Part shown: piece after piece, positions 21,799-44,527 of the stretch | Position numbering within the stretch: position 1 is the stretch's first letter | Layout: every line of letters begins with the position of its first letter | Origin: Bacilli bacterium | GTDB lineage: Bacteria; Bacillota_I; Bacilli_A; ML615J-28; CAG-698 | Assembly (NCBI GenBank): GCA_050174575.1 | Contig: JBFXJT010000007.1 | Span: 6,648-70,647, forward strand | Reading direction: 5' to 3' | Length of the DNA: 64,000 nt | Notes under the pieces: model-generated | What the model was told of the DNA's origin: nothing | The model's database searches: none | What the model saw: only the letters and a program-made list of their open reading frames with translations | Translations under genes and position numbers: made by a program

Positions 21799-21807
21799 AT
21801 TTCCTCC

Positions 21808-22224: not shown

Positions 22225-22241
22225 GAAATAACTCCTTTCAT

Positions 22242-22273
22242 AAAAAAAGCTGTTGTCTTTTAAAGACAACAGC
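22242..22273 (-). terminator. Riboswitch expression-platform terminator
   Basis: GCUGUUGUCUU-uua-AAGACAACAGC followed by UUUUUUU, immediately upstream of the RBS of the first operon gene. Confidence 0.8.
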
Positions 22274-22435: not shown

Positions 22436-22446
22436 TAACTAATACT

Positions 22447-28757: not shown

Positions 28758-29284
28758 AAAAAATAATATTATTCCTCCTTTTTGTTAGTTTACTTGCTAT
28801 CGTTGGTTGTACAATTGGTGAAAACACAACTGTTAAAATGTCTTTAAAGTCTGGTATCGATACAGTTGAAATTAATAGCGAATATGTTGATCCAGGTGTC
28901 AAAGCAACTTTTGGTTTATTGAGCCTTGATGTCAAGGTCGTTTCTTCAACCGTCAACACCCAAATGCTCGGGGCTTATGAAATTGTTTATGAAGCTAGTT
29001 ATAACGGTATTTTTAAAACAATTACACGAATAGTGACTGTAATTGATGATACTGCCCCTATTATTTACTTAAATCCTGGTGTTGACACTATTTTAATCGG
29101 TGAAAATTGGGTTGACGCTGGTGTTACGATAACCGACAATAGCAATGTTGTGATTGACCCCATCATAACTGGAGAAATTAACAATCAAGTTGTTGGTGAT
29201 TATGAAATTGTTTATCAAGCAAAAGACTCAAGCAACAATATTAATCAAATTATCCGTATAGTTCATGTTATTGATAACGAATAA
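28754..29284 (+). CDS. Lipoprotein with two DUF5011 (Ig-like) domains
   Basis: Lipobox LLAIVGC. Two ~65-aa modules of the pattern VD.G..A.......G.YEIVY.A.D..G......R.V.VID. Start overlaps the protease stop (ATGA). Confidence 0.7.
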   Translation: MKKIILFLLFVSLLAIVGCTIGENTTVKMSLKSGIDTVEINSEYVDPGVKATFGLLSLDVKVVSSTVNTQMLGAYEIVYEASYNGIFKTITRIVTVIDDTAPIIYLNPGVDTILIGENWVDAGVTITDNSNVVIDPIITGEINNQVVGDYEIVYQAKDSSNNINQIIRIVHVIDNE

Positions 29285-29310
29285 AAAAAGGTCCGATTTT
29301 CGGACCTTCT
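29283..29310 (-). terminator. Terminator of the fructan operon (after the fructokinase gene)
   Basis: GGUCCGA-aaa-UCGGACC followed by UUUUUUU on the minus strand. The same hairpin follows the convergent plus-strand gene, but with a poor U-tract. Confidence 0.75.
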
Positions 29311-30254
29311 CACATTAAATTATTTATTTCATCTAAGGTAGGAAGGGCATCAATTGCCCCTTTTTTTGTTGTCACTAACGCGCCTGAAATATTACCAAAC
29401 CGTAAAATTTGTACAATTTGCTCATCAGTTAAATCATCAATATCTAATTTGTCTAAATTGACTAAAACACCAGCATAGAAAGCGTCTCCTGCACCCGTTG
29501 TATCAATTGGTTTTACAATAATTGATGGTACTTTGAGCAAGCGCCCATGGTGAAAAAAAACAGAGCCATCTTTTCCCAAAGTCAAAAAGACTATTTGGTT
29601 TTTTGTTGTGAGTTTCATCAATCCTTTTTCTAAATCTGTTTCACCAGTAAATAAAATTAATTCGTCTTGAGATATTTTTAAATAATCTGCCTTTTTTGCG
29701 TAATATGTATAAATGTTAATTGCTGTTTGCGCATCAACGAATAAATCATCGCGATAGTTAACATCAAAACTTAATGATTTATGGCTTTTTTTCACAAGTT
29801 TAATAATGTGATTTGCAAGTTCTCTTCCTTTTGGTTCGCTTAACAGTAATGAACCAAGATGAACAATATCAGCTTGTTTGATGGCTTCTAAGCTGGTTTT
29901 GGGGATATGAAAATCCGCTTGGTTTTTGTGATAAAAACTAAAGTGGCGTTCGCCATCATCGTCATTCGCAACAAATGCTAAAGTAGTATTGTGAAATGGA
30001 TCTTCCGTAATTAATGTTTTAGAAAAAGGAATTTTAGATGCAAAATCAATTAAAAATTGACCCATCAAATCAACTCCGACATTTCCAACGAACTGAACAT
30101 TTCCTCCATACTTAGCAATGCCACAAGCAACATTAAAAGGAGCTCCACCCGCAAATGTTTGATAAGACATCGTGTTATTAACTTTTTGACCTATTAAATC
30201 AACAAGGATTTCGCCAATACAGACTATCATTTGTTTCTCCTTAAGTTGTTTCAC
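29310..30254 (-). CDS. scrK: Fructokinase (PfkB/ribokinase family)
   Basis: 314 aa with the PfkB signature DTTGAGDAFYAG. Position at the end of the fructan locus, overlapping the lacI-family gene, supports the fructokinase call. Confidence 0.75.
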   Translation of the reverse strand: MKQLKEKQMIVCIGEILVDLIGQKVNNTMSYQTFAGGAPFNVACGIAKYGGNVQFVGNVGVDLMGQFLIDFASKIPFSKTLITEDPFHNTTLAFVANDDDGERHFSFYHKNQADFHIPKTSLEAIKQADIVHLGSLLLSEPKGRELANHIIKLVKKSHKSLSFDVNYRDDLFVDAQTAINIYTYYAKKADYLKISQDELILFTGETDLEKGLMKLTTKNQIVFLTLGKDGSVFFHHGRLLKVPSIIVKPIDTTGAGDAFYAGVLVNLDKLDIDDLTDEQIVQILRFGNISGALVTTKKGAIDALPTLDEINNLM

Positions 30255-31203
30255 CTAAAATTAAATTAGTTGGAACAAAAATGAATTCTTCCGATGTTTC
30301 ATGATTAATTCGTAATATCAGTTGATTAACAATGGCAACGGCAAGAGCTTCAATATCTTGTTTGACAACAGTAAATTTAGGATGTTGTAAAATCTCATCC
30401 ATGACTCCATCAAATGCAATGATTTTGATTTCTTCAGGAACTTTTTTTCCAAGTTGAGTAGCTATCTGAAAGCAAGTATTGGCAAAGGTATCACTTTGGG
30501 CAAAAATTCCGTCCAATGTTGGGTTCTCTTGCATAAATTGTTTTGCAACAACAAATTCTTCACCATGATATACATTCTTATAACAAGAAGTCGGAACCAT
30601 ATTATATTTTTGCATTACATCCAAATAAGCAAAGTAACGTTTTTGTGTTTCTGAAGGAGCAGTGGACATACCACCAATATAGCCAATGTGATGACACCCT
30701 TTTTGGACAAGATGCTCAATGGCTTTAAAAGTACTTTCATAATTATCACTTGTAACACAAGGAACGTTGTCGAGATGACGATCCAAAGTCACTATGTTTA
30801 GCCCTTTGAAATCAACATCCTGATATAAGTGATTGGTGATGAAAATAATCCCGTCGACTTGTCCTGTCTTAATCATATTCAATAAATGAACTTCTTTATC
30901 TCTTTTTCCTTGAGAACTGACAATAATCATTTTGAAACCTTTTTTATACAAGTAATCCTCAATGTAAAAAGCAATTTTACTAAAGAAAACGTGACTAATG
31001 GTTGGAACAAATAGGGCAACTAATCCAGATCTTTGTGCCTGTAGATTTCGCCCTAATTGATTAGGAATGTAATTGAGTGCTTTAATTGCATCTTCTATTT
31101 TTTTTCGCGATTCTTCAGATACATAACCGTTTTTATTAATGTATCGCGAAACAGTTCCCATGCCAACCCCAGCTCGTTTTGCAACTTCTTTCATTTGGGC
31201 CAA
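30241..31203 (-). CDS. LacI-family transcriptional regulator (probable repressor of the fructan operon)
   Basis: N-terminal HTH MAQMKEVAKRAGVGMGTVSRYIN and a C-terminal periplasmic-binding-protein-like sugar-binding domain. Confidence 0.85.
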   Translation of the reverse strand: MAQMKEVAKRAGVGMGTVSRYINKNGYVSEESRKKIEDAIKALNYIPNQLGRNLQAQRSGLVALFVPTISHVFFSKIAFYIEDYLYKKGFKMIIVSSQGKRDKEVHLLNMIKTGQVDGIIFITNHLYQDVDFKGLNIVTLDRHLDNVPCVTSDNYESTFKAIEHLVQKGCHHIGYIGGMSTAPSETQKRYFAYLDVMQKYNMVPTSCYKNVYHGEEFVVAKQFMQENPTLDGIFAQSDTFANTCFQIATQLGKKVPEEIKIIAFDGVMDEILQHPKFTVVKQDIEALAVAIVNQLILRINHETSEEFIFVPTNLILGETT

Positions 31204-31283
31204 GGTAGTCGCCTCCTAACATGTTTTCATAAACTATATTATATCACTACGTACTACTATTTTTTAACCGTTTTTCGAAATAT

Positions 31284-31344
31284 TGTAATGAAAGTAGTTC
31301 TTTCATGGATGATTAACATCATTTTGAAAGAACTACTTTATTAT
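31284..31344 (-). repeat. Long inverted repeat / RNA hairpin between the 914-aa gene and lacI
   Basis: Arms TAATGAAAGTAGTTCTTTCA (31284-31303) and TGAAAGAACTACTTTATTA (31326-31344) are about 19 of 20 complementary, with a ~20-nt loop. Each arm is itself a GAAAG...CTTTC mini-palindrome. Confidence 0.7.
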
Positions 31345-31353
31345 TAAACAACC

Positions 31354-34098
31354 TTATCCCATTTGATTAGTAATTGTTTGCCATGGAATATTGTGTGTTC
31401 GTTCGACAGTCCATTGATCGCTCGTATCTTTACTGTAAAGAGTTACGGTATCAAAGCCATTAGCAATATCTGGAGTAACTGCATAGTATGTTACAACTTC
31501 ATCAAAGAAGGCAACAGCCCAACCAGCTACTTCAATATCACAAAGTTCCAAATACAATTCCTGGCCTAAGTAAGCACTTAAATCAATAAAATATGTCCCC
31601 ATATCTGCCCATGATCCACCTAAATCTACACTTGGGAAATTGGTATCGCTAAAACGATTTTGTTTATATAAACCAATTTGTGTCCCGTCAGCTAAATAAA
31701 CTTTTACAGCTGCAGCATTAGCACCCATTTTTAAAGAAATAAAGCCTGTTCCGTGAAGAGTAAAATTGGTTGAGCGTAATGAATATTGCTCGCTTTCCGC
31801 AACACCTGAAGTCCATCCGTCAAAGTGATAATCACCGCTTTGGTTATATGGTAATTTTTCATTCCAATAATGTGTTTGACTTATAACAGCATTAACTGTA
31901 ACTTTTTCAGAAGTCCAACCAGTCATATCACCAGTTTCAAAACCTCCATTGATAATTAAACCATTATTGCCCATTTCCCATTCGATATTAACATCTGGTT
32001 CTTGGACACTGTCTTTTGTAGAACCAGCAACAGTATCAAAGCCATTTGCAACATCAGGAACAGTTGTATGATAGAAATTAATATCATCAAAGAAAGAAAC
32101 TGCCCAACCAGCTGTAGCTGGATCATCAATCAATTCAACATAAACTTTTTCGCCTAAATAAGCCGATAAGTCCGCAAAGTAACGTGTCATGGTCGCTAAA
32201 CGTCCACCATTAGCAAGGTATGGGAAATCAAAATCTTTGAAACGATAATTTGTGAAATAACCGATGACTGTTCCATCTTCTTTTACAACACGAACAGCGG
32301 CAGCTTTTCCACCCATCATGAAGGAAACCCAACCAGTACCAGATAATGTAAATAATCCAGAGCGTAAAGTATAACCAGCTGATTCCACGCTTGTTGCTGT
32401 CCAACCATCAAAATGGTAATTTCCTTGTTGGTTATAAGCAATCATTTCGCCCCAGAAAGTTTCTGCGCTTAAGGCACCATTAATTATATCGCCAAAAACA
32501 ACACTCCAACCAGTCATATCACCTGTTTCAAATCCACCGTTTGCGACATTGGTATCGGCAGAAACGACAACATTGAATGTGCTCGTAACTGTTTCGCTTT
32601 CATAAGTTGTCCCATAATGAACAACATATGTTCCTTCTTGATCAAAATCAAAAGCATCAAATCCTGTTGTAAACTCTGTTTCGCCTAAAACAACTTTTGT
32701 AATGACAGCTGGTACAGCCGTTTCGCCATAAGTTATCACGACATCAGCCATTAATGCTGTCAAGTTGTAATCATTTACCATCGCCGTTACAAAACCTTCT
32801 GCTTCAGTTTCAATCATTAAGGCAGGTAATTCAAATGGATAATCATAATTTGTATAGTATTCTTGTAAATGAGCTAGCGAATTATATGAATCGGTGTATG
32901 TTTCTGCCATAATTGCTTGGAAAGTAGATTTCATTAAAGCTTTTACTTCAACTTCCGTCATACTAACACGGAAATCATCAGCATTGATGAAAGCAAATCC
33001 GCTACTTGGATTGTTGTCCACAATCGAGATGTACAACACATCGCCAAGGTATTCGGATGCATCAACATAAACGCGACGTAATGTCAATGGTAATCCTGGA
33101 TCGTTAAATGTTGTATTAGTGACTTGGATTAATTCTGCATCTGTTGTTCCGTCATTAATAGAAATATAACAATTTGTTGGCCCAGAACCAATCATAAAGG
33201 AAATCCAACCATCACCGGCTAATGTGAATTTTGTAGAACGGATTGCTCCAACTGCTGATTCGGCAGTAGCTGCATTGTTATTTCCGTCTAAATAATAATC
33301 ACCTTCACCATAAACCATACGATCAGTCCAATAAAATTGTGATGTTGGAACGACAACTGTTCCACCAAATGCTGTACCGCTTAATTGTTTCCAACCAGTT
33401 AAATCACCTGTTTCAAACCCACCATTTGTAATCGTTGTTGATGTTGGGTCTTCTTCAAATTCTGGTTCTCCATAAGCTTCAATTTGGGCATCACGTTCTG
33501 CTTGCATAGCTGTAACTTCTGCTTCAGTCAAACAAACTACAAAATCATCTAAATTGACATAGCCATAATCATCGGTGTTATCACTGTCAGTTACTCTGAT
33601 ATAAATGATTTTATTCAAATGTGCTGATAAATCAACAACTCTTCTGATCATTTGATCAGTAATAAATGGTTCATCATAATCAGTATTCGTTATTTTTAAC
33701 AAAGCCGTGGCATTGTCTTTTTCAAAGAACTCAACAAAAATCTTATCTTGATTTTTTGCAGCTCCCATTTTAAAAGCAATTTTACCAGTTCCAGTTAATT
33801 TAAAGAAAGAAGATGTTAGTGTACCAACCATTTGTTGAGTACCACCATCCGTTCCACTGAACCAAAATTCTCCTGTTTTATCTACAGTAATTCCATTTAC
33901 TTTTAGATCATTAACGATACCGCGAGGACTAAAAGCCGTTTCTGTTTTTGTCCATCCCGTCCAAACTTCTGCTGTTCCAACTTCAAATCCACCGTTTGTA
34001 ATTTGGGTTGGATACTCTTCTTCTTTACCACATGCTGCTAACAATAATAAAGAGAGTGCTAGCATAAATACAAAGGTAAAACGCCATGTTTTTTTCAT
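31354..34098 (-). CDS. Surface lipoprotein made of four tandem CBM-like (ConA-like/CBM66-like) beta-sandwich modules; putative fructan-binding protein
   Basis: Lipobox LLLAAC. Four ~190-230-aa repeats each open with NGGFE.G...GW (ITNGGFEVGTAEVW, ITNGGFETGDLTGW, VANGGFETGDMTGW, IINGGFETGDMTGW) and end with ...Y..(V/I)(N/D)DF. The N-terminal module of the adjacent GH32 enzyme is homologous. Confidence 0.6.
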   Translation of the reverse strand: MKKTWRFTFVFMLALSLLLLAACGKEEEYPTQITNGGFEVGTAEVWTGWTKTETAFSPRGIVNDLKVNGITVDKTGEFWFSGTDGGTQQMVGTLTSSFFKLTGTGKIAFKMGAAKNQDKIFVEFFEKDNATALLKITNTDYDEPFITDQMIRRVVDLSAHLNKIIYIRVTDSDNTDDYGYVNLDDFVVCLTEAEVTAMQAERDAQIEAYGEPEFEEDPTSTTITNGGFETGDLTGWKQLSGTAFGGTVVVPTSQFYWTDRMVYGEGDYYLDGNNNAATAESAVGAIRSTKFTLAGDGWISFMIGSGPTNCYISINDGTTDAELIQVTNTTFNDPGLPLTLRRVYVDASEYLGDVLYISIVDNNPSSGFAFINADDFRVSMTEVEVKALMKSTFQAIMAETYTDSYNSLAHLQEYYTNYDYPFELPALMIETEAEGFVTAMVNDYNLTALMADVVITYGETAVPAVITKVVLGETEFTTGFDAFDFDQEGTYVVHYGTTYESETVTSTFNVVVSADTNVANGGFETGDMTGWSVVFGDIINGALSAETFWGEMIAYNQQGNYHFDGWTATSVESAGYTLRSGLFTLSGTGWVSFMMGGKAAAVRVVKEDGTVIGYFTNYRFKDFDFPYLANGGRLATMTRYFADLSAYLGEKVYVELIDDPATAGWAVSFFDDINFYHTTVPDVANGFDTVAGSTKDSVQEPDVNIEWEMGNNGLIINGGFETGDMTGWTSEKVTVNAVISQTHYWNEKLPYNQSGDYHFDGWTSGVAESEQYSLRSTNFTLHGTGFISLKMGANAAAVKVYLADGTQIGLYKQNRFSDTNFPSVDLGGSWADMGTYFIDLSAYLGQELYLELCDIEVAGWAVAFFDEVVTYYAVTPDIANGFDTVTLYSKDTSDQWTVERTHNIPWQTITNQMG

Positions 34099-34115
34099 TT
34101 TTTTCTCCTTTTCCT

Positions 34116-36164
34116 CTATTTTACAATAATGTCATATTTGCTTATTTGCTTTAATATAGAACTTCCCCCAACAGTGAAAAATTCAATACCAGTGTCATTT
34201 AAGCCTGGGTAAACATTTCCAGTCATCGTAATATAACCATCATTAATAAAGACTTCAACACTGGAAACGTCTAAAAAGATTCGTAATTTTAAAATCCCAT
34301 TATTTAAGGAAACGTCAGCACTCCTAGTTTGACGGTTGATTTCCGCACCACTGATTGTTTCACCTGAATTTCCTCGATCAAAGATAACTGTTTGTGAAAG
34401 AGCATCATAATAAACTAATGTTTCGTTTTCTGTTCCTTTAAACAGTTTCACCCCAACTTTAGATGCAGATCCAACTTCAATTTCAAGTTCCAGTTCAACC
34501 GTCTTACCAGAAATTTGTGGGAGGACTAAGTTTCCATTAATCGTTTTATTTTGATAACTGACTTCATTTTGACGATAATTTTCGATTTCTCTAACTGGGG
34601 CTTGATAAATATGGCCATCTTTATAGGTCAATTCTCTTGGCAAGGTATAAGCACCAACCCAGTTATGCGCTTGTGTGACTAAAGTACGATCCCACATTTG
34701 CATCCATGCTAGCATAATTGTTCGTCCATCAGGCGTTATCATCGTTTGAGCAGCATAGAAATCAAATCCACCGTCAAATTCTTGAAATTCATCATAATTG
34801 AATTTCCCCGTTTGATAATCAATTCCACCAACCATATAAACTACCGAGTGAATATTTTCAAATTTCGTCTTGTCTCTTGGTAAATTTTGTGGACTAACAA
34901 TTAAAATCTCTTGATTATTTAACTCAATAAAATCTGGGCATTCATAAACACCATTTAACTGTAAGAAATTTGGTGCTTGAGGATTGTTATTGTTCATGAC
35001 TTTGCCAACATAATCCCAACTAGTTAAATTGCTCGAACGATAAAGGACAACCATGCCATAGCCATTTGCTTTCGTACCGATCAAACAATAATAATATCCA
35101 TCATGATAAAACACTTTTGGATCACGAAAATCAGCTGTTGATACACCGATTGGTACCTCAATTGTAGAAATAACTGGATTACGGGTTAATTTTTCAAAAT
35201 TAATCCCATCTTCGGACACTGCTAGATTTTGTGTTTGTTGATTATTGGCTACGCCAGTATACATGAGGTATAATTTCCCATCTTTTTCAATAGCCGTCCC
35301 ACTAAAGCACCCAAAATCTTGATCATATTTTTGATCGGGAGCTAAAGCTACAGGCTGTAATTCCCACTTAACAAAATCCTTCGTTGTTTGATGCCCCCAA
35401 TGCATTGGGCCCCAACTGCTGGCATAAGGGTTAAATTGGTGAAACAAATGACCTTCACCATTAAACCAAATTAATCCGTTGGGATCATTACTCCATCCTA
35501 TTGGAGATGCAGCATGATAAGTATGACGGTAAGTTGGGTTTACAGTATTAAGATTTTCAAGAACATATTGATATGCATCGTGTACTTTTCCCACTTGATC
35601 TTCAACTCCTTGATAATTAACGATAAAATCGTCAACATTGATGTAATTATAGTTATCGGTATTATTATCATTATCAATAATTTTTATTTGAACTGTTTTT
35701 CCAATATGACTACTTCCATCCAATATGACCCGATGGAGAGTATTTGGACTGCTTTCATCAAAATTTAAATTAGCGCGTGTTGCTAATTCATTCCCTCTTG
35801 AGTCAATTAAAGAAACATAACATAAGTCGACATTTGCTCCACCGCTAATCAAAAATCCGATTTTTCCATTCCCTTTTAATTGAAATTTTTCACTTAACAT
35901 AAAACCGGTTTTACTTAAGCCTGCTTTTTTACCATAAAAGAGAAATTCTCCCGTTTGGTTAAAGCGATTGCCATTTTCATCTTTGTCATTAAGAACAACA
36001 CCAGCATCAGTAAAAGCATCACCGTCTTCTTCCCAGTTTTTTAAGGTACCACTTTCAAAACTAGCGTTTAAAAAGGAATATTCGCCATCCACAGTTTGAT
36101 TACATCCTCCTAATATCATGATGAAAGAAAGAAGGATAGCAATCAAAAGCCATTTATTCTTCAT
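34116..36164 (-). CDS. GH32 beta-fructofuranosidase/levanase lipoprotein with N-terminal CBM-like module (canonical active site)
   Basis: Lipobox ILGGC. GH32 motifs WSNDPNGL (nucleophile), FSGTAI, RDPKVF and YECPDF are all present. Confidence 0.85.
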   Translation of the reverse strand: MKNKWLLIAILLSFIMILGGCNQTVDGEYSFLNASFESGTLKNWEEDGDAFTDAGVVLNDKDENGNRFNQTGEFLFYGKKAGLSKTGFMLSEKFQLKGNGKIGFLISGGANVDLCYVSLIDSRGNELATRANLNFDESSPNTLHRVILDGSSHIGKTVQIKIIDNDNNTDNYNYINVDDFIVNYQGVEDQVGKVHDAYQYVLENLNTVNPTYRHTYHAASPIGWSNDPNGLIWFNGEGHLFHQFNPYASSWGPMHWGHQTTKDFVKWELQPVALAPDQKYDQDFGCFSGTAIEKDGKLYLMYTGVANNQQTQNLAVSEDGINFEKLTRNPVISTIEVPIGVSTADFRDPKVFYHDGYYYCLIGTKANGYGMVVLYRSSNLTSWDYVGKVMNNNNPQAPNFLQLNGVYECPDFIELNNQEILIVSPQNLPRDKTKFENIHSVVYMVGGIDYQTGKFNYDEFQEFDGGFDFYAAQTMITPDGRTIMLAWMQMWDRTLVTQAHNWVGAYTLPRELTYKDGHIYQAPVREIENYRQNEVSYQNKTINGNLVLPQISGKTVELELEIEVGSASKVGVKLFKGTENETLVYYDALSQTVIFDRGNSGETISGAEINRQTRSADVSLNNGILKLRIFLDVSSVEVFINDGYITMTGNVYPGLNDTGIEFFTVGGSSILKQISKYDIIVK

Positions 36165-38544
36165 CCAGTGTTACCTCTTCATAAATTGATTTCATTGTTT
36201 TGACAGTCATTTGGTTTATGTTGACTTCACCATTTTCTGAAAACAAGAGTAACCCTAAAGATGAAGGATCGGGATAAATACGGGCAGAAATAGCTTTTTC
36301 ATTGTTGAAAAAAGCTTCAATTAAAGAACGGTCGAGGTAAATATCCATGACTAAAATATTATTATCTAAAACAAATGAGCCATAGAAATTTCCTGAAATG
36401 TTTTGGTTATCGCTTAATGCACCACTTAAACCTGTTTTTACTCCTAAGGTTTTTAATGTCTCATTAAAATAAAGCGTTGTTTCTTCTAACGTAGTGGCGT
36501 TCTTGCGAACTTTTATTCCAAACAAAGTAGCATTAATGTTTTCAAATTCTACGTGAATATAAAGCATGTCACCCTTTACATCAGTTAATAGGGTGTTGGC
36601 TTCACTGATGGACTTATTGCTCATTGTGACTAATGTCTCTTGGTAATAGTCTTCTAGTGCGGATACTGGGCGAATCATTAAATCCGTTCCGTCACTGTTT
36701 AAATAAACTTCTCTAGCCAGTCCAACACAGTTTGCCCACCCAGATAAATAGACATCCGATGGTTTCCTTTGATCCTGCATGATACTGAAAAGATAAGTTT
36801 TTTGGGAAACTGGATCAATAAAACCTGAAGGGCCAGTAAAAACATTATTACCATAATCAAGTAGTCTTGGAGTCGTCCCAAAAGCAGGATCGGGAATAAA
36901 ACGACCAGCAGTTTTATCGAAAGTACCAAGCCAATAATAAATATCATTATCGGCACTGTCAGCAGGAGCAGGACTAATAATCAACATATATTTTGTAATT
37001 GTTTTACTTTCGTTTGTTACGGGAAGCATAATCGGAAGTTCCCAAACAGGCCCTAAATCGGCAGGTTGATTGACTTGTTCGTACAATTGCCCTTTGTAGG
37101 TCCAATTATTAAACGAGTCATCCTTTGTTGTATAAAGTAAAGCTGTCCCACCAGTATTGATTTTGGTACTTGATGATCCAATTAGTAAAAACCAAGTATC
37201 TTCTTCTTGCCAAACATGGGCATCACGAAATTGTCCCGATGCTCCTTGACCAGCTACTTGTTTAATAGCTAATTCATCATCGATTACCCATTCTGTTAAG
37301 TAGGGATCGGTTGGATCTTTGGGCCTAGCAATACCAATGTTTTGATTGCTTATCAAACCATCTTTTTGATAAGAGTCATTTCCAGCAGTAAATAGTAAGA
37401 CGGGAATGCCTTCATTATCATAAGTTACACCACCGCTCCATACACCATCCGGACAAACGGAATCAGCTGTTGGGGTGATAACTTCTTTTAATGGACGCCA
37501 ATTAACCATATCATCACTGATTAAATGCCCCCATCCAATATTGCGAAAATAAGGGCCAAACATATTGAATTGGAAAAATAAGTGATAATACCCATTGTAA
37601 TACATTGGAGCATGAGGTTCATTCATCCAGTGTTGATAAGGACCACCATGATATTGTGTTTTATAAAAATCATCTGTCAGAATATTTTGTAACCAAATAT
37701 CCTCAAAAGCAATTTCCGGAACTGTCTTACTTTCGTAAACTTGCTTTACATCATTTGCTTGTAAACTGGCTTCATAGACTTTTAACTCATCAATCAATCC
37801 ACTTACCATATTTAAAGTTGCCGTAGCATTCGAACCTGGATAACTATTACGAGCAATGAGGAAGGGTTCGCCCGACGCTCCCATAATGGTTGCCCCTTCG
37901 AAAAAATAATCAATGTTGACTAATTCGCCATTTAAATATATGGCCATTTCGCCTTGATCACCATCGAAGGTTGCCACAATATGATTCCATTCATATTTTT
38001 TAAGGGGATTACCTTCATCCCATAAAGTTAACCATCGGTCACCAAGACCTACTTGAAAGCTCCAAGAACCATGGCGTTGATAGCCAAGAATAAATCCTTG
38101 GTTTTCACTTTTATTGTGTTGAGAAACAATCGCTGTTAATTTATCAGTTCCATTGTCTTTGGCATTGGGATCGTCCCACTCAAAGGCCCTTGGAGCAATC
38201 CAAACACTAATTGATAATTTTGAACCGCGAATTTTTAAATCTTCTTCTTGATAACGGATAAAATTAGAATATCCATCAAACAATAAGGAGCCATTATTGA
38301 TCCCTGTTGCGCGCCACTGTGGATCCTCAGGATTTTCCATAAAGCTAGGGTTTGTGAAAACATAAGCAACAGTCGCTGGAGCTTCGTTTTTCGAAGCATC
38401 ATTCACTTTGTTGCCCTGACCTTCATCAAAAGTTAAATGTAACAATAAATCTTTTGTATAAGGGTCGCTCTTTCCACATGCATATAAACTTGAAACAATG
38501 AATAATAGGAAAAAAATAGTCAATAGTTTTTTTGTTATCATCAT
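36154..38544 (-). CDS. GH32-like lipoprotein with N-terminal LamG-like domain; variant active-site motifs
   Basis: Lipobox LYAC; N-terminal ConA/LamG-like domain. The GH32 block reads WMNEPHAPMYYNGYYHLFFQFN...WGHLISDDMVNW, but the canonical NDPNG is NEPHA, RDP is RDA (FRDAHVW), and EC is EL (WELPIM). Confidence 0.75.
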   Translation of the reverse strand: MMITKKLLTIFFLLFIVSSLYACGKSDPYTKDLLLHLTFDEGQGNKVNDASKNEAPATVAYVFTNPSFMENPEDPQWRATGINNGSLLFDGYSNFIRYQEEDLKIRGSKLSISVWIAPRAFEWDDPNAKDNGTDKLTAIVSQHNKSENQGFILGYQRHGSWSFQVGLGDRWLTLWDEGNPLKKYEWNHIVATFDGDQGEMAIYLNGELVNIDYFFEGATIMGASGEPFLIARNSYPGSNATATLNMVSGLIDELKVYEASLQANDVKQVYESKTVPEIAFEDIWLQNILTDDFYKTQYHGGPYQHWMNEPHAPMYYNGYYHLFFQFNMFGPYFRNIGWGHLISDDMVNWRPLKEVITPTADSVCPDGVWSGGVTYDNEGIPVLLFTAGNDSYQKDGLISNQNIGIARPKDPTDPYLTEWVIDDELAIKQVAGQGASGQFRDAHVWQEEDTWFLLIGSSSTKINTGGTALLYTTKDDSFNNWTYKGQLYEQVNQPADLGPVWELPIMLPVTNESKTITKYMLIISPAPADSADNDIYYWLGTFDKTAGRFIPDPAFGTTPRLLDYGNNVFTGPSGFIDPVSQKTYLFSIMQDQRKPSDVYLSGWANCVGLAREVYLNSDGTDLMIRPVSALEDYYQETLVTMSNKSISEANTLLTDVKGDMLYIHVEFENINATLFGIKVRKNATTLEETTLYFNETLKTLGVKTGLSGALSDNQNISGNFYGSFVLDNNILVMDIYLDRSLIEAFFNNEKAISARIYPDPSSLGLLLFSENGEVNINQMTVKTMKSIYEEVTLDEE

Positions 38545-38555
38545 CTTTTTCCCTC

Positions 38556-40904
38556 CTAGATTGTTTTCATTTTAATTACTTGCAAAACATCAACCATAAT
38601 TTGACCATCAGCAAATAACGACATTTCCGATGCATTGTTATAAACCATCGCCGTCAATGTTTGATACCCATTGATGTATATTTCAATCATTGCTCCATCA
38701 ATAAATATTTCTAAATCTAATACTTCCCCAGGAAGAAGAGAAATTCCTCCCCCAAAGATTCCTTTCACAACACTATTTCCAGAATTAGTTGTATCAATTG
38801 AAATAAATTGATCGATTGCGTTATAATTTAGGACTGTCTTTCTCCCTAGTTGATCTTCTTTTAAAGTAAGTCCAAAATTTTGAGAATTTTCATTAGTTAA
38901 TTGAACATGCAAGTATAACTGATTGCCGACCACTGATGCTAAAGCTTGGTTTGCAAATTCAATATTAGTATCTTTTTTATCAACAATGACATCAGTTTTT
39001 AAATTATTTAATTCGTTTAAAGGGGTAATTTTTAAACTGCCGGCATCATCAAGTGACAATTGACGAGGAATACCAGCAGTATGGGCCCATCCTGCATCAT
39101 AATCTTGATGACCATTTCGTTGGCCTTGAATAATGCTACAAATTAAAACACGTCCTGTTAGGGGATCCGTCGAAACCGTTGGCCCCGTAAACACATTGTT
39201 CCCAAAATCCATTAATTTTGGATCTTCATGTTCAGGAATAAAAGTCATCGTTGTTTTATCGAAGTCCCCCAAATAATAGTAAATATCATTATCCGCACCA
39301 GAACCCGCGGGAGAAAACGCAAATATATACTTAGAAACTGTTTTATTAGCGTTCGTTATTTTCGCAAGATTTACTAATTCCCATGTCGTACCCATATAAT
39401 TATGATAAACAGAAGGCATGAACAGTTCGCCTTGATAATCCCAATTCAAAAAAGAATCGTCTTGAGTTGTAAATACTTGGGCAGTTCCTTTATTATCATA
39501 ACGAGCAGATCCGACAAACATGTAGTAAGTTCCATCTTCAAAATAAATATTTGGATCACGAAATTCGTTTGTTTTGGCCATTGATGGTGTTGAGACGGCT
39601 ACTAATTGATCGCTTACATCCCACTCCGTTAAATCAGGATCGCTTAAATCTTTCGGTATTGCAATGGCGATATTTTGATTGCTCCATTGCCCAAAGCTTT
39701 TGGCATCATCACCGGCTGTAAAAAATAATACGGGTGTTCCATCAGCTTTGTATGACGCTCCTCCCGACCAAATACCATCAGGACAAACAGAATTTTTCAT
39801 AAGAATAATGGCTTCTTTCACATTGCGCCAATTGACCATATCAGGACTTACCCAATGACCCCATGCAATTTGCCGCCAGTATGGCCCAGTAAGATTAAAT
39901 TGATAAAACAAATGGTAATTTCCATTGAAATAAAACAAAGCATGTGGTTCATTCATCCAATGTTGAGGTGGTGAAGCATGATATTGAGGTTTGTATATAT
40001 CATCATCTAGCAATTCGTCATTAAGCCAAGCATCTTTAAAATCAATGGCTTTCATGCGGTTTTTTTGTACAAAACTGTTGTGATAGGCTATTATATCCTC
40101 TTCTTTAATTGATGCTTGGTAAATTTTAAGTTCGTCCATTAAACCATTGAACATATTAATTTCATAAAGGCCTGTTTTTTGGGGAACCTGGCTTTTTCCG
40201 ATATACAAAGATGTATTCGCAGCAATAATCTCGCCAAATACATCATTGTGAAAATTAATTATTTCCCCGTTTTTGTATATCCCCATAAATCCGTTTGTTC
40301 CATCAAAAACAAAGGTAAGATGATTCCAAGTATAACGGTCAAGATCATTCCACTCATTCCAAAGTTTAACCCAGCGATCGCCAAGTCCTATTTGAAAGGA
40401 ATATTCACCATATTTATGCATGCCGATAACAAAACCTTGATTTTCTGACATGATGTATTGCCCTAAAACAACTTGCAAATGCTCCGTTCCGTTAACAACT
40501 GCTCCTGGAACATCCCATTCAAACATCCTTGGGCTAATGAATAAATCAATAGTTAAGTTAGGACCGCTAATTTGAATATCCTGATAATCATATTTTATAT
40601 AATTCGAATAACCATCAAAGGCTAAACATGCACCACTAATTGCTGAATTTGTAATCCAAGTTGGATCAATCGATTGCTTGTATTCAGCATCCGTGAAGAC
40701 ATATTCAATCGTGGCTTTTGTCATTGTTGTTTGTTCAGTAAGTTCGTTACCTTCATTTTCATCAAAAGAAGTTGCAAATATTAATTTATCTTGATAAGGG
40801 TCATGATAATCGTGATAATAAATTGCATCCTCCTCTGTTTTTGCACAACCAATAAAGGCCATCATTAAACAAAAAACTGTGATAATTAATAAACCTTTTT
40901 TCAA
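38556..40904 (-). CDS. GH32-like lipoprotein with N-terminal LamG-like domain; paralog with NEPHA motif
   Basis: Lipobox FIGC. WMNEPHALFYFNGNYHLFYQFN...WGHWVSPDMVNW; RDP retained (EFRDPNIYF); EC replaced by EL (WELVNL). Confidence 0.75.
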   Translation of the reverse strand: MKKGLLIITVFCLMMAFIGCAKTEEDAIYYHDYHDPYQDKLIFATSFDENEGNELTEQTTMTKATIEYVFTDAEYKQSIDPTWITNSAISGACLAFDGYSNYIKYDYQDIQISGPNLTIDLFISPRMFEWDVPGAVVNGTEHLQVVLGQYIMSENQGFVIGMHKYGEYSFQIGLGDRWVKLWNEWNDLDRYTWNHLTFVFDGTNGFMGIYKNGEIINFHNDVFGEIIAANTSLYIGKSQVPQKTGLYEINMFNGLMDELKIYQASIKEEDIIAYHNSFVQKNRMKAIDFKDAWLNDELLDDDIYKPQYHASPPQHWMNEPHALFYFNGNYHLFYQFNLTGPYWRQIAWGHWVSPDMVNWRNVKEAIILMKNSVCPDGIWSGGASYKADGTPVLFFTAGDDAKSFGQWSNQNIAIAIPKDLSDPDLTEWDVSDQLVAVSTPSMAKTNEFRDPNIYFEDGTYYMFVGSARYDNKGTAQVFTTQDDSFLNWDYQGELFMPSVYHNYMGTTWELVNLAKITNANKTVSKYIFAFSPAGSGADNDIYYYLGDFDKTTMTFIPEHEDPKLMDFGNNVFTGPTVSTDPLTGRVLICSIIQGQRNGHQDYDAGWAHTAGIPRQLSLDDAGSLKITPLNELNNLKTDVIVDKKDTNIEFANQALASVVGNQLYLHVQLTNENSQNFGLTLKEDQLGRKTVLNYNAIDQFISIDTTNSGNSVVKGIFGGGISLLPGEVLDLEIFIDGAMIEIYINGYQTLTAMVYNNASEMSLFADGQIMVDVLQVIKMKTI

Positions 40905-40916
40905 ATTACCACTTCC

Positions 40917-41843
40917 TTACTTCAATCCAGTAAAAGCGACACCTTCAATAATATATCTTTGAGCAAAAATATAAACTAAGGCGATCGGAATCGTACTAAA
41001 TGTTAAGGATGCCATAACTAAAGAAATATCTTTCGGATTAAAATTATTAATCAACTGTAAAAATACTTGCAAAGGTTGTTGCACTGGATTAGAGAACATT
41101 AATTGTGCAAACACATATTCGTTCCAACTTCCCATAAATGTAAAAATAGCGACTGTTGCAAATACTGGCAATGATAGAGGAACAATAACCTTAAAGAAGG
41201 TTGTTAATTTACTAGCACCATCAACATAAGCTGCTTCTTCTAATTCTTTAGGAATTCCCAAGAAAAAAGCCCGAAACATGAAGATATAAAAGGGACTAAC
41301 AATACCTGGTAATAAATAACCAATGACTCTCAATTCTGCTGTCAATAATCCCAAATTTTTTAAAATAACATACAAAGGAACAATAGAAGTCTCAACAGGA
41401 ACAATTAATATTAAAATAATGATACTAACGATGGTTTTATGACCAGGAAAAACAAAACGAGACAACGCATAACCGGCAAGTGAGTTAACTAATAAAACAC
41501 CTGTAATCGAAATTGTTGCATAAATGACACTGTTAAGAATGGATCTTCCAAAATTATCAAAAGTTGCAAATAAATTTTGATAAGATAAAAACCATTTGCT
41601 GATATTCCAAGTAGCTGGTAAAAAGGTTTTTATGGAATTGATGGAGGCATACACTTCTGCTTGAGTTTTAAAACTATTCGAAAGCATCCATACTACAGGA
41701 AATAAAAAGATAATGCATAGCACGATTAAAAAAATTCTAAATAATGTTTTCGCAATTATTTCACGAACTGAGTAATGTCTTTTTTGTTTTTTAGGCAATT
41801 GTAGTATTGATAATGGAATGTTTTTTCGCTTCTTTTTCATCAT
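40917..41843 (-). CDS. Carbohydrate ABC transporter permease (MalG-like)
   Basis: EAA loop EAAYVDGASKLTTFFKVIVPLSLP and six TM segments. Start placed at the internal MMKKKRK, since the long-ORF start overlaps the upstream permease by 23 nt. Confidence 0.8.
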   Translation of the reverse strand: MMKKKRKNIPLSILQLPKKQKRHYSVREIIAKTLFRIFLIVLCIIFLFPVVWMLSNSFKTQAEVYASINSIKTFLPATWNISKWFLSYQNLFATFDNFGRSILNSVIYATISITGVLLVNSLAGYALSRFVFPGHKTIVSIIILILIVPVETSIVPLYVILKNLGLLTAELRVIGYLLPGIVSPFYIFMFRAFFLGIPKELEEAAYVDGASKLTTFFKVIVPLSLPVFATVAIFTFMGSWNEYVFAQLMFSNPVQQPLQVFLQLINNFNPKDISLVMASLTFSTIPIALVYIFAQRYIIEGVAFTGLK

Positions 41844-41850
41844 TATCACC

Positions 41851-42783
41851 TCAAATTGTGTTATCTTTCTCAAAGACTTTTCTTAAGGTTAAAGCAATCG
41901 TAGCCATAAAGATGGTATAAATTAAAGCGATGGCACTTGAATAACCAACATCCCGGAAATTAATACCTTGCAAATAAATATAATAAGACATCGTTAAGGT
42001 CCGGTCAATCGGACCTCCTCTTGTCATAATCATTGGTTGGGTAATCAACCTAAATGCCCCAATCATCATTGTAATCAGCACAAATGAGAATGTAGGCTTG
42101 ATGCTAGGAAGGGTAATCCGCCAGAATTGTTGGAATTTATTCGCTCCATCGATGCTTGATGCTTCATACAGCTCTTTTGGAATATTTTTTAGTGCTGACA
42201 AGAAAATTAACATTTGGTAACCTGCTCCCTGCCAAGCAGAAATCATGACAATTAAATCCATGGCTTGTTCGGGATCGCTTAAGAAAAGTTGTCTCGATAA
42301 ACCAATAGTTTCAAGGAGGGCATTTATCAATCCATCTTGCTCATTCAATAAGTTAATCCATAACATCGATGTGACCGCCAATGACAACATTGTTGGCACA
42401 AAGAATGCCCATCTAAAAAAGGTATTTCCCTTCATTGGCTTATTTAAAATCAAGGCTAACAAAAGAGCTGCACCAAGTTGTAACGGAATAACTTTTAAAA
42501 CAAATTCCATTGTGTTTTTAAATGCTTGAAGAAGAATTTTATCTTGAAAGGCATTTTTAAAGTTTGCAAAACCAATAAAAGTTGTATTATTTAACTCTAA
42601 TAAATTGGCATCTGTAAACGAATAGGCTAGAGAAATAACAATGGGCATAATGACAAATATAATTCCTAAAATAACAGCAGGAAGCAAAAAACTCCAACCT
42701 ATAATCGTATCAGAAGTTCGGTATGTTTTCCCAAATAATTTAAAATACATTCGGGTATTTGGTTTTTTTACAGATCCTACCAT
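41851..42783 (-). CDS. Carbohydrate ABC transporter permease (MalF-like)
   Basis: EAA loop EASSIDGANKFQQFWRITLP and six TM segments. Confidence 0.8.
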   Translation of the reverse strand: MVGSVKKPNTRMYFKLFGKTYRTSDTIIGWSFLLPAVILGIIFVIMPIVISLAYSFTDANLLELNNTTFIGFANFKNAFQDKILLQAFKNTMEFVLKVIPLQLGAALLLALILNKPMKGNTFFRWAFFVPTMLSLAVTSMLWINLLNEQDGLINALLETIGLSRQLFLSDPEQAMDLIVMISAWQGAGYQMLIFLSALKNIPKELYEASSIDGANKFQQFWRITLPSIKPTFSFVLITMMIGAFRLITQPMIMTRGGPIDRTLTMSYYIYLQGINFRDVGYSSAIALIYTIFMATIALTLRKVFEKDNTI

Positions 42784-42793
42784 TTTTCACCTC

Positions 42794-44134
42794 TTAATTG
42801 TCAATTTGAACGACTTGAGTGTCAATGTAATCTTCTAAATTGTATTCTGTTGTTCCATTCATTGTTTCGATGTATTCAATAATTTTACTGTAGCTACTAC
42901 TTACTTTAGGATAGTTGATCATTTTTGGTCGGGGAGTAGCAATTTCTTGTAAAATAGTTGCTAATGAACCTAAAGCTCCCGTTTGGAATCCTGTTAAATC
43001 ATTCAAAAGTGATTTATGGGTTGGAAATGTTCCAATTGATTCATACATTAATTGGCTTCCAGTAACTCCTGTTATATAAGCAACAGCAATCGCTGCTGAA
43101 GCAGGATCGGATGAATTAACCGTTACTCCAAATCCCCATGAACCACAACCAGCAACCGGCGTTCCTTTTGTAGTTTCGTCTTCATAAACAGGCATCGGCA
43201 TAATTCCATAACTTGGAATAAAAGTATTATAATTTTTCTTAATCGTCGAAATATTCCATGGTCCGTGAATTTCAAAAGCGCATTCTCCACCTGCTAAAGC
43301 ATCTGTATTGCTGCCATTGTAAACCCAAGGTTCGCCATCATCATCGGGGTTGAAGAACATTTCTAACATTTTAATTCCTTTAATAGAATTAGAAGAGTTA
43401 AGGGCACCATCAACGACTTCATTGGCGCCAAAGAAACTCCCACCTGAAGAATATATTAATGATGAATATAAATACATGACACCTTCATCGCCACCAAATC
43501 CTAAGTTCAATTTAATTCGATATTCAAGGTTGGCAGCTTTTAGGGCAACCATTGCTTCCATAACATCAAGCCAAGACCAAGGATTAGTAACTGTCCCAAA
43601 ATCTTCTTCATCATAACCAACTTGCTTTAATAAATCCTTATTAAAATACATTCCAGTTGGCGCATCCATACCGGATAAAGCATATAATTTTCCATCAATC
43701 GTACTTTGTTCGATGACGCTGTCAACATAACTCGAAGTAATATCAGTTGTTAAATATTGATCAATCGGTGCTAAAATGCCCGCATCAGCATAAGCAGCTA
43801 TATTAGGGGCATCAACAGCAACAATGTCAGGAAGTCCTCCTGATAGAATTTCCGCGTTGATTGCTGTTTGTAAAGTATCAGAACTGTTTTTAAATTCTAA
43901 TTTCATTTTTAAAATTCTTGTTCCATCAGCAGTTTTTAATTGTTGTTCATTAAACAATTCAGCAATTGTGGAATAAACAATCCCTTCATCTTCTGCTTCG
44001 GATTTATGAACCCAAACCTTAATTACTTTTACCTCGTCCGTATCTTCATCTTCTGCTGGACCACAACCAACAAACACCAAGAAACTAAGCAAAAGTACCA
44101 TAACACTTAAAAAAAGTTTTCCAAAATTTTTCAT
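42794..44134 (-). CDS. Extracellular solute-binding lipoprotein (family 1, CUT1 sugar ABC)
   Basis: Lipobox FVGCGP; 446 aa SBP_bac_1-like. It is the first gene of the fructan operon. Confidence 0.8.
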   Translation of the reverse strand: MKNFGKLFLSVMVLLLSFLVFVGCGPAEDEDTDEVKVIKVWVHKSEAEDEGIVYSTIAELFNEQQLKTADGTRILKMKLEFKNSSDTLQTAINAEILSGGLPDIVAVDAPNIAAYADAGILAPIDQYLTTDITSSYVDSVIEQSTIDGKLYALSGMDAPTGMYFNKDLLKQVGYDEEDFGTVTNPWSWLDVMEAMVALKAANLEYRIKLNLGFGGDEGVMYLYSSLIYSSGGSFFGANEVVDGALNSSNSIKGIKMLEMFFNPDDDGEPWVYNGSNTDALAGGECAFEIHGPWNISTIKKNYNTFIPSYGIMPMPVYEDETTKGTPVAGCGSWGFGVTVNSSDPASAAIAVAYITGVTGSQLMYESIGTFPTHKSLLNDLTGFQTGALGSLATILQEIATPRPKMINYPKVSSSYSKIIEYIETMNGTTEYNLEDYIDTQVVQIDN

Positions 44135-44223
44135 TTTCGTTCATCCTTTCTTATTATTGTTGAAAATGTGAAAATAGTTTGTTTTATAAAGTGAAAAAGA
44201 GATCTAGAAAATACAAATTTAAG

Positions 44224-44237
44224 TGGAATCGTTTCCA
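44224..44237 (-). promoter_or_regulatory. LacI-type operator O2 (TGGAAtCGtTTCCA)
   Basis: 14-bp near-palindrome matching the LacI-family/cre consensus TGnAAnCGnTTnCA, ~50 nt downstream of the predicted TSS of the SBP gene. Confidence 0.65.
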
Positions 44238-44279
44238 TGTTTTGCTAAAAAAAAGAAAAAATCTTATTTTTTTAAAATG

Positions 44280-44293
44280 TGGAAACGATTCCT
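44280..44293 (-). promoter_or_regulatory. LacI-type operator O1 (AGGAATCGTTTCCA on the minus strand)
   Basis: Second copy, 13 of 14 identical to O2, immediately downstream of the -10 element and overlapping the TSS. The two operators are 56 bp centre to centre. Confidence 0.65.
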
Positions 44294-44305
44294 CTAGTTG
44301 CTTTT

Positions 44306-44334
44306 ATTTTAAACCACCCCGTTTTTTTTGTCAA
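44306..44334 (-). promoter_or_regulatory. Sigma70 promoter of the fructan operon
   Basis: Minus strand TTGACA (44329-44334), a 17-nt spacer, then TAAAAT (44306-44311). Confidence 0.6.
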
Positions 44335-44361
44335 GCGTTTTCTTTTATTATTTTTTAAAAA

Positions 44362-44391
44362 TAAAAAATACTATGGCGTTTCCCATAGTAT
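44362..44391 (-). terminator. Terminator after tRNA-Ser(CGA)
   Basis: AUACUAUGG-gaaacg-CCAUAGUAU followed by UUUUU on the minus strand. Confidence 0.7.
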
Positions 44392-44436
44392 CTAAAAACT
44401 GATTGTTATTCTCTTCTTATTTTCTTAATAATTTAA

Positions 44437-44527
44437 TGGCGGAGGAGAAGGGATTTGAACCCTTGCACCGTTTTACCGATCTGCTCGCTTTCGAGACGAG
44501 TCCCTTCAGCCGCTTGGGTACTCCTCC
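44437..44527 (-). tRNA. tRNA-Ser (anticodon CGA)
   Basis: 91 nt: GGAGGAG-TA-CCCAAGCGGCTGAAGGG-A-CTCGT-CTCGAAA-GCGAG-(19-nt variable arm)-AAGGG-TTCAAAT-CCCTT-CTCCTCC-GCCA. The long variable arm is characteristic of Ser. Confidence 0.85.

Follow-up and report, generated by a model that had tools for sequence, protein, structure and literature searches.

Loci of the kind described here determine which bacteria of the gut or the environment use inulin, a major prebiotic of the diet. This one is a cluster of about 15 kb in a contig (JBFXJT010000007.1) from a Bacilli bacterium. Nine open reading frames, all on the minus strand, span positions 29310-44134 of the 64-kb stretch of DNA that was analysed, which we call the window. 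A fructan polysaccharide utilisation locus (PUL) outside the Gram-positive bacteria is BT1754-BT1765 of Bacteroides thetaiotaomicron. Among the Firmicutes, loci for fructo-oligosaccharides or fructan include msm of Lactobacillus acidophilus, fus/sus of Streptococcus pneumoniae, fosABCDXE of Lactobacillus paracasei and levDEFG-sacC of Bacillus subtilis. Like the window locus these combine a glycoside hydrolase of family GH32 with a transporter and a regulator, and some use a shared MsmK/MsmX ATPase. They differ in having one GH32, which is located in the cytoplasm (msm, fus), anchored to the wall or secreted (FosE, SacC), and often a phosphotransferase system, and we know of no dedicated non-catalytic binding protein in any of them. 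Closer still are the Gram-positive PULs (gpPULs), defined in 2016 by one or more enzymes that degrade polysaccharides, a transport system for carbohydrates and a regulator of transcription in one locus (PMC5320581). The fructan gpPULs Eub-3/Eub-4 of Eubacterium rectale and Roseburia inulinivorans hold GH32, ATP-binding cassette (ABC) transporter, LacI, fructokinase and hypothetical genes (PMC5320581).

The three gpPUL components are all present in the window locus, as three GH32 genes, one SBP_bac_1 and two BPD_transp_1 genes, and a lacI gene. We read the region, with a probability of roughly 0.75, as a gpPUL for inulin-type fructan in an uncultured Acholeplasmataceae-related Bacilli bacterium, with two transcription units and five surface lipoproteins. 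It is a fairly ordinary member of a published class and adds little conceptually. The substrate, the products, the binding and the induction were all deduced from the sequence, and this weighs against our reading, as do the points given below together with the alternatives that they favour.

Domains were assigned with Pfam and family cutoffs were taken from NCBIfam. An initial annotation, made by a model from the DNA letters, had listed a solute-binding protein (SBP), two permeases, three GH32 proteins, a four-module lipoprotein, a LacI regulator and a PfkB kinase, and each of these was found where it had been placed (Table 1). Its description of a fructan cluster with surface-tethered GH32 enzymes, a lipoprotein with several carbohydrate-binding modules (CBMs), a LacI regulator and a fructokinase-like PfkB agrees with the domains and the lipoboxes. 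It had also given every secreted component a lipobox, and using the pattern [LVIF][ASTVIGY][GAS]C we find one in five of the five exported proteins, each time behind a short basic n-region and a hydrophobic h-region. From this we infer that all five are lipidated and held on the outer face of the membrane.

As in Eub-3/Eub-4, genes for GH32, for an ABC transporter that lacks an ATPase of its own, for LacI, for fructokinase and for 'hypothetical' proteins stand in one locus, and an extracellular GH32 with a lectin-like CBM is a further shared trait. The gene set recurs in the related loci that were compared (L001 and L005-L011), and syntenic loci are common in metagenomes of Clostridia and Bacilli. 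In the loci inspected, a homologue of the 914-amino-acid (aa) lipoprotein adjoins a GH32 with a LamG-like domain (LamG-GH32), an ATPase-less ABC importer, a lacI gene and usually a pfkB gene; the Lachnospiraceae loci L005-L008 have homologues of both the 914-aa protein and the LamG-GH32. Compared with the Lachnospiraceae fructan gpPULs, the window locus has two endo-type paralogues, an exo-type GH32 that is predicted to be on the surface rather than in the cytoplasm, four modules instead of three in the binding protein, an SBP of a different type, and a lacI gene that is co-oriented rather than divergent. Furthermore, all exported parts are lipoproteins here, whereas the LamG-GH32 proteins of L005, L007 and L011 have an N-terminal membrane anchor instead.

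The resemblance to the B. thetaiotaomicron PUL lies in a surface glycan-binding lipoprotein, a surface endo GH32, exo GH32 activity, an importer, a fructokinase and a dedicated sensor or regulator. Unlike that PUL, the window locus has no SusC/SusD, outer membrane or periplasm and uses an ABC importer; it has a LacI repressor in place of a hybrid two-component sensor, an endo-enzyme of inulin type rather than levan type, and a binding protein of unrelated fold. No Pfam family of SusC or SusD was found in the nine proteins or their flanks, and the likeness to Bacteroidetes PULs is functional only. The initial annotation had spoken of the logic of a Bacteroides PUL rebuilt with Gram-positive parts; the functional likeness stands but the novelty does not, since gpPULs, including the fructan loci Eub-3/Eub-4, were defined in 2016 (PMC5320581).

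'Gram-positive' is phylogenetically right. The nearest named relatives of the glycogen phosphorylase encoded in the window are 'Bacilli bacterium' metagenome-assembled genomes (MAGs) and an Acholeplasmataceae MAG at 65% identity, and an Acholeplasmatales MAG is among the nearest named relatives of the 914-aa protein. The host is a member of the Bacillota and plausibly wall-less. If it does lack a wall, lipoprotein anchoring of all exoproteins is the expected default and not a special design.

The cluster starts just past the terminator of a tRNA-Ser gene, where the operon promoter is found; the same layout, a promoter followed by an operator, is seen in L009, L010 and L011. The first seven genes are tightly packed, with gaps of at most 17 nt or overlaps. 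The sole large gap, of 150 nt, separates the 914-aa gene from lacI, and it holds a stable hairpin followed by a promoter with an extended -10 box. L001, which runs collinear with the locus over 14.8 kb at a nucleotide identity of 78.7%, permits a comparison: the arms of the hairpin are identical in the two sequences although the loop and surrounding bases have diverged, and the extended -10 box (TAGTGATATAATA; TGATATAAT) is exactly kept amid diverged flanks. This argues that both elements are functional. Because the hairpin arms and the -10 box are conserved in this way, the cluster probably consists of a seven-gene unit and a lacI-pfkB unit, with some read-through possible. The initial annotation had predicted a single transcription unit and had itself named internal terminators or promoters as the finding that would speak against it; the hairpin and promoter before lacI are elements of that sort.

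A single unit of nine genes, in which the hairpin merely stabilises or processes the mRNA, is the alternative that survives best, though we consider it rather unlikely. All genes are co-stranded, the only canonical stem with a U-run on the minus strand follows pfkB, and lacI-pfkB is also last in L001, L009 and L011. Furthermore, the window hairpin before lacI is not followed by a U-run, so that termination may be weak and the nine genes partly co-transcribed. In L001, on the other hand, a T-run does follow the hairpin, and the exactly conserved promoter between hairpin and lacI is not expected from a single unit. Moreover, lacI is separately or divergently transcribed in L005, L007 and L010, and a repressor normally needs expression that is independent of its own target promoter. 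The remaining terminator-like matches within the seven-gene unit are weak, and in the scanned region as a whole 10 were found where 10.1 were expected from shuffled sequences.

Two gene starts may have to be moved. The open reading frame of PfkB probably begins too far upstream, as the L001 orthologue starts with MIVCIGEIL, which corresponds to the ATG at 30230 in the window. The true start of permease 2 may be an internal ATG (MMKKKRK) about 10 codons in.

Past the operon promoter lie two palindromes with a central CG. Both are copies of TGGAAACGATTCC(A/T), and no further site in the 64 kb matches with at most one mismatch. In L011 the same box recurs, as TGGAAACGGTTCCA, in two copies that are 61 bp apart and directly past the promoter; L010 has it once, as GTGGAAACGATTCCAC, following the -10 box, and a variant, GTGGTATCGATACCAC, takes the equivalent position in L009. 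The regulators of these three loci are 33-47% identical to the LacI protein of the window. The box was not found in the Lachnospiraceae loci L005-L008, where the regulators are less than 30% identical to it. A LacI orthologue adjoins the operon in every related locus, and the features of a LacI-family system, i.e. a helix-turn-helix, a sensor domain like periplasmic binding proteins and central-CG palindromes near the promoter, are all present. The boxes probably are dedicated operators of the linked LacI protein, because they are conserved after the -10 box in loci where protein identity is only about 33-62%.

Alternatively, the two palindromes could be catabolite-responsive elements (cre sites) for global repression by CcpA. 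The cre consensus is TGNAANCGNTNNCA, and the predicted operators, TGGAAACGATTCCA among them, fit it; CcpA is also the best NCBIfam match of the local regulator, although far below the cutoff. We consider this unlikely. Nearly the same 14-16-mer stands at the same place in the diverged loci just mentioned, there is no other close copy in the 64 kb, and the box is a variant one in L009, where the regulator shares 47% identity, a pattern that fits co-evolution with the linked regulator. The conserved sequence of the predicted operators offers a means of locating the regulon in related genomes.

The three GH32 proteins match the GH32N (five-bladed propeller) and GH32C (beta-sandwich) families with E-values of 1e-54 to 1e-91, and all three have the W(M/S)N(E/D)P, RD(P/A) and (W/Y)E(L/C) motifs. 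Two of them, the 782-aa and 796-aa proteins, are paralogues (40% identical) with an N-terminal LamG-like domain. Their catalytic motifs are WMNE319P, RD450P and WE509L in the former and WMNE309P, RD441A and WE502L in the latter; thus the nucleophile motif reads WMNEPHA instead of the canonical WMNDPNG, and the acid/base Glu is kept. The same nucleophile Glu is found in every LamG-GH32 relative examined, from Lachnospiraceae and Bacilli MAGs to multi-module proteins of Paenibacillus type. A Glu nucleophile in WMNEP is a signature of endo-inulinases, e.g. E43 of Aspergillus ficuum INU2 (PMC3829992), and the endo-inulinase EnIA of Arthrobacter sp. S37 has Glu323/Asp460/Glu519 and a gene of 2439 bp (PMC5984348). 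The window enzymes share this Glu in place of Asp with EnIA and INU2, and the 782-aa protein is also like EnIA in size and in catalytic numbering (319/450/509), a comparison made by description. They differ from both in having WMNEPHA rather than WMNEPNG and WEL(P/V) rather than ECP at the acid/base, and in being lipoproteins. Both paralogues are accordingly predicted to be of endo-inulinase type. Enzymes of this subgroup (EC 3.2.1.7) cleave beta-2,1 fructan internally and release inulotriose to inulopentaose.

The third enzyme, of 682 aa, has the canonical motifs WSNDPNG, RDP and ECP. It scores 427.7 bits against the NCBIfam scrB_fam model (cutoff 356.4), and its closest solved structures are exo-type beta-fructofuranosidases. 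The N-terminal 190 or so residues are without Pfam assignment; residues 191-682 share 53% identity with the full length of a 493-aa GH32 that has no signal sequence and takes the same syntenic position in L011. In the window, L001, L009 and L010 the orthologues of this exo-GH32 have an additional N-terminal module and a lipobox; those of L005, L007 and L011 are cytoplasmic. The ScrB-type GH32 carries a lipobox here, and therefore the locus has no cytoplasmic GH32; none was found elsewhere in the 64-kb window either. An orthologous enzyme that is cytoplasmic or surface-tethered depending on the lineage provides a natural contrast for studying localisation and the release of fructose as a public good.

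The initial annotation had left the substrate as levan or inulin. Inulin is more likely, because two enzymes have the WMNEPHA motif with its Glu nucleophile and the binding modules are probably of an inulin-binding family (see below). That the locus targets levan, i.e. beta-2,6 fructan, appears quite improbable to us. In its favour, the LamG_3 domains on two GH32 proteins resemble in kind the levan-binding CBM66 reported on GH32 enzymes of the E. rectale fructan gpPULs (PMC5320581), so the LamG-like domain could be such a module; CBM38 is reported to bind levan as well as inulin (PMC10076258), and GH32 sequence alone is a poor predictor of linkage specificity. However, both LamG-GH32 proteins have the WMNEP motif of endo-inulinases, and solved endo-levanases are very weak or absent among the structure matches listed (9h8i with E 2e-10; BT1760 entries absent). 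When the LamG region was compared with solved structures, no entry of CBM66, the levan-binding family of B. subtilis SacC, was found at E <= 1; the best match was an S-layer LamG protein, 4qvs, and Pfam gives only the generic Laminin_G_3.

The clade with the WMNEP motif also holds multi-module proteins like the cycloinulo-oligosaccharide fructanotransferases (CFTases), and hence the LamG-GH32 pair might be transferases whose products are cyclic or otherwise result from transfer. Paenibacillus-type proteins of 1300-2100 aa with the CFTase module layout belong to the same WxNE(P/A/S)H clade and have the same LamG-GH32 core, and CBM38 was itself defined on a CFTase. A transferase is nevertheless very unlikely in our opinion: the window enzymes have no CBM38 modules fused to them, they match the hydrolase EnIA in size and in the numbering of the catalytic residues, and hydrolysis is the better fit for a catabolic locus that also encodes an exo-GH32, an importer and a fructokinase.

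The 914-aa lipoprotein does not match any Pfam family by sequence. Four modules, homologous to each other and each of about 175 aa, lie at residues 30-203, 220-392, 515-697 and 712-895 (E-values of 1e-68 to 1e-74 with a hidden Markov model of the module), with a helical linker and an Ig-like domain between the second and the third. A fifth copy forms the N-terminus of the 682-aa GH32, which blastp aligns to the four modules with E-values of 2e-23, 8e-18, 3e-6 and 8e-4. An AlphaFold2 model of the whole protein (51 homologues, pLDDT 91) has four beta-sandwiches, helical linkers and an Ig-like middle domain, and a model of the module alone also reaches pLDDT 91. According to Foldseek the module is nearest to CBMs (a porphyran CBM, CBM61, CBM6, CBM35, CBM4 and CBM16), with MAM and gingipain adhesin domains also among the matches; TM-scores are 0.4-0.64 and identity is at most 17%. 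Against the sequences of solved structures, the protein and the module profile gave nothing beyond the start motif NGxFETGxLxGW.

The module profile was furthermore searched against 1.84 billion representative sequences, giving 2,543 proteins at E <= 1e-3. Among 31 long matches no catalytic domain other than GH32 occurs; it is found in 10 of them, and in 20 of the 145 top new representatives. The other long matches carry anchoring domains, namely SLH, CWB2, Big_2, FIVAR or a Por tail. Clusters of the family are named only 'hypothetical protein' or 'GH32 C-terminal domain-containing protein', and a word-indexed search with the profile returned only short or fragmentary proteins, none of them informatively named. 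Several multi-module matches containing GH32 and with a named source are from Paenibacillus. One protein, P0244, has modules at 38-215, 222-399 and 405-562, then a GH32 core and, at 1330-1494, one more module. The published annotation of a Defluviitalea protein is CBM38(44-189)+CBM38(221-367)+CBM38(409-527)+GH32+CBM38(1313-1448) (PMC7355431), and the founder of CBM38 is residues 32-389 of the CFTase of Paenibacillus macerans, two beta-sandwiches that bind inulin and levan (PMC10076258). The layout of P0244 matches that of the Defluviitalea protein and also agrees with the founder; because of this, the description of the founder and the Paenibacillus source of several GH32-containing matches, the module is probably CAZy CBM38, an inulin-binding family.

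Module size, tandem layout and exclusive association with GH32 match CBM38 as it has been described. As in the P. macerans CFTase, there are beta-sandwich modules of about 175 aa, which in this family stand in tandem N-terminal and again C-terminal of GH32 cores. The window differs in having the modules in a stand-alone non-catalytic lipoprotein and, once, fused to an exo-type GH32. A point against the assignment is that it uses matching architecture and not a sequence alignment with the founder.

All homologues of the 914-aa protein, those of Lachnospiraceae included, are lipoproteins, and the lipobox Cys is conserved across the family. The protein is predicted to capture inulin at the cell surface. 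A further alternative, a general adhesin or structural surface protein that is linked to the locus by chance, is suggested by the likeness to MAM and gingipain adhesin domains and by the lack of a catalytic domain in most family members, but is highly improbable given that the protein adjoins a LamG-GH32 in every locus examined, that only GH32 is ever fused to the module as a catalytic domain, and that the exo-GH32 of this very locus carries the same module.

Single copies of the module occur as well. P0150-P0176, from metagenomes, are a family of secreted proteins of about 235 aa with one module copy and an ordinary signal peptide, and some of the clusters comprise about 100 sequences. They may bind fructan either as free proteins or with another kind of anchor.

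For uptake, the locus encodes what is expected of a CUT1 importer: a family 1 solute-binding protein and two permeases like MalF and MalG. The best PDB relatives of the SBP bind di- or oligosaccharides, and it is 49-62% identical to the SBPs of L009, L010 and L011 (49% to that of L011). An ATPase of the MsmK/MalK type was not found in the locus, in the 64-kb window or in any of the related loci, in line with the initial annotation, and the only ABC_tran gene in the window pairs with a MacB/FtsX permease. The ATPase is presumably shared and encoded elsewhere in the genome. The best NCBIfam match of the PfkB protein is fructokinase, below the equivalog cutoff.

Import of oligofructans followed by a fructokinase, as the initial annotation had it, agrees with the gene content as far as importer and kinase are concerned; the scheme omits the cytoplasmic hydrolase step, and no such enzyme is encoded in the locus. 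We put forward, as a tentative proposal that is possible but doubtful, that in this Acholeplasma-related lineage the whole depolymerisation, including the ScrB-type step that is normally cytoplasmic, has moved to the surface, that the ABC transporter imports mainly fructose and that no cytoplasmic GH32 is needed. The same proposal takes the 914-aa protein as representing a large family, as yet without a name, of surface lipoproteins that have several modules and no catalytic function and are the Gram-positive and Mollicute counterpart of the Bacteroides surface glycan-binding proteins, dedicated to fructan. Externalisation of the exo-enzyme could then have shifted uptake to fructose, for which fructokinase alone would suffice. 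A point against it is that the SBP is orthologous to that of L011, a locus with a cytoplasmic GH32, and this orthology suggests uptake of oligosaccharides and a cytoplasmic hydrolase elsewhere in the genome. The widespread and uncharacterised lipoprotein family is the most useful lead from this work, as it supplies candidate fructan capture proteins in Firmicutes and Mollicute-like bacteria.

Taken together, these observations best support the following mechanism. Transcription would start from the sigma-70 promoter at 44334-44306, identified by sequence match, and the LacI protein of the locus would probably bind the two TGGAAACGATTCCA operators downstream, as their conservation suggests, until released by a product of fructan breakdown. 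The seven-gene unit would supply five lipoproteins on the outer face of the membrane. There the 914-aa protein with its four probable CBM38 jelly-roll modules would capture inulin in the way of a Bacteroides surface glycan-binding protein, and the two LamG-GH32 enzymes, judged by their WMNEP motif, would cut it into short inulo-oligosaccharides. The exo-type ScrB-family GH32, having gained a lipobox and one binding module, would trim these to fructose outside the cell. Fructose and/or short oligosaccharides would be imported by the SBP and the two permeases, energised by an MsmK-type ATPase encoded elsewhere, and the PfkB kinase would convert fructose to fructose-6-phosphate. The lacI-pfkB genes would form a second unit with its own promoter behind the conserved hairpin, possibly with some read-through.

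Table 1. Coordinates of the fructan locus and its signals in the window, in the order of transcription of the cluster
Feature	Position	Strand	Evidence and remarks
tRNA-Ser(CGA)	44437-44527		directly upstream of the cluster; own terminator at 44366-44393
Operon promoter, TTGACA, 17-nt spacer, TAAAAT	44306-44334	-	best promoter match in the region, 11/12
Predicted operator O1, TGGAAACGATTCCT, LacI-family palindrome with central CG	44280-44293	.	12 nt past the -10 box
Predicted operator O2, TGGAAACGATTCCA, perfect 14-mer	44224-44237	.	68 nt past the -10 box, 56 bp from O1
Solute-binding lipoprotein of CUT1-type ABC sugar importer, 446 aa	42794-44134	-	Pfam SBP_bac_1, SBP_bac_8; lipobox FVGC
ABC permease 1, 310 aa	41851-42783	-	BPD_transp_1; UgpA/MalF-like in NCBIfam
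ABC permease 2, 318 aa, overlaps the preceding gene	40917-41873	-	BPD_transp_1; MalG/UgpE-like
LamG-like + GH32 lipoprotein, predicted endo-inulinase type, 782 aa	38556-40904	-	Laminin_G_3+GH32N+GH32C; lipobox FIGC; motifs
Paralogous LamG-like + GH32 lipoprotein, predicted endo-inulinase type, 796 aa	36154-38544	-	Laminin_G_3+GH32N+GH32C; lipobox LYAC; motifs
CBM38-like module + exo-type ScrB-family GH32 lipoprotein, 682 aa	34116-36164	-	GH32N+GH32C; scrB_fam; lipobox LGGC
N-terminal binding module of the 682-aa GH32 (predicted)	35595-36086	-	blastp to the modules of the 914-aa protein
Predicted non-catalytic surface lipoprotein, 914 aa	31354-34098	-	no Pfam family; lipobox LAAC
Intergenic hairpin, 15-bp outer stem, terminator-like or processing element	31291-31339	-	dG -22.9 kcal/mol, z = -7.7 against shuffles
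Internal lacI-pfkB promoter, TTAAAA, 18-nt spacer, TG-n-TATAAT (extended -10)	31238-31267	-	sequence match
LacI-family regulator, 320 aa	30241-31203	-	LacI helix-turn-helix + Peripla_BP
PfkB-family sugar kinase, probable fructokinase	29310-30254	-	Pfam PfkB
Intrinsic terminator closing the cluster	29285-29311	-	12-bp stem + U-run; dG -16.4 kcal/mol, z = -4.9

The similarity to L001 breaks off exactly where the cluster has its 3' end, and the genes downstream differ. The cluster behaves as a discrete block in different contexts. We considered a mobile-element origin and rejected it: despite the adjoining tRNA-Ser gene and the different 3' context in L001, the GC content is the same as that of the flanks and there is no integrase nearby. 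The L001 locus, 91% identical, is on contig CAZYFI010000002.1 of a MAG titled 'uncultured Bacteroidales bacterium'. Either the contig is mis-binned or the MAG mislabelled, probably, because the locus is all-lipoprotein, free of SusC/D and of Firmicute type.

The remainder of the window holds several other gene sets. On the plus strand, 26073-29284 encodes an 894-aa subtilase with four Listeria-Bacteroides repeats, an ordinary signal peptide and no lipobox. Its gene overlaps that of a 176-aa lipoprotein with bacterial surface Ig-like domains, and the pair converges on the terminator of the fructan locus. An alpha-glucan cluster at 1126-9375 on the minus strand consists of a GH9-like protein with CelD_N, a GH13 alpha-amylase, the glycogen phosphorylase and the 4-alpha-glucanotransferase MalQ. 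A further lipoprotein, of 560 aa with BspA-type leucine-rich repeats and the lipobox LTAC, is encoded at 11753-13435 on the minus strand.

A complete lysine-fermentation set (MaoC dehydratase, two CoA-transferase subunits, the beta-keto acid cleavage enzyme Kce, a dehydrogenase, lysine 2,3-aminomutase KamA and lysine 5,6-aminomutase KamDE) is located at 13732-22438 on the minus strand, with a lysine riboswitch (Rfam RF00168, 81 bits, 22262-22438) upstream. As this riboswitch precedes a pathway of catabolism instead of one for biosynthesis or transport, it would have to work as an ON switch. Additionally, a PAS-GGDEF protein with a C-terminal hemerythrin domain is encoded at 22517-24157 on the minus strand and may link the sensing of oxygen or iron to cyclic di-GMP.

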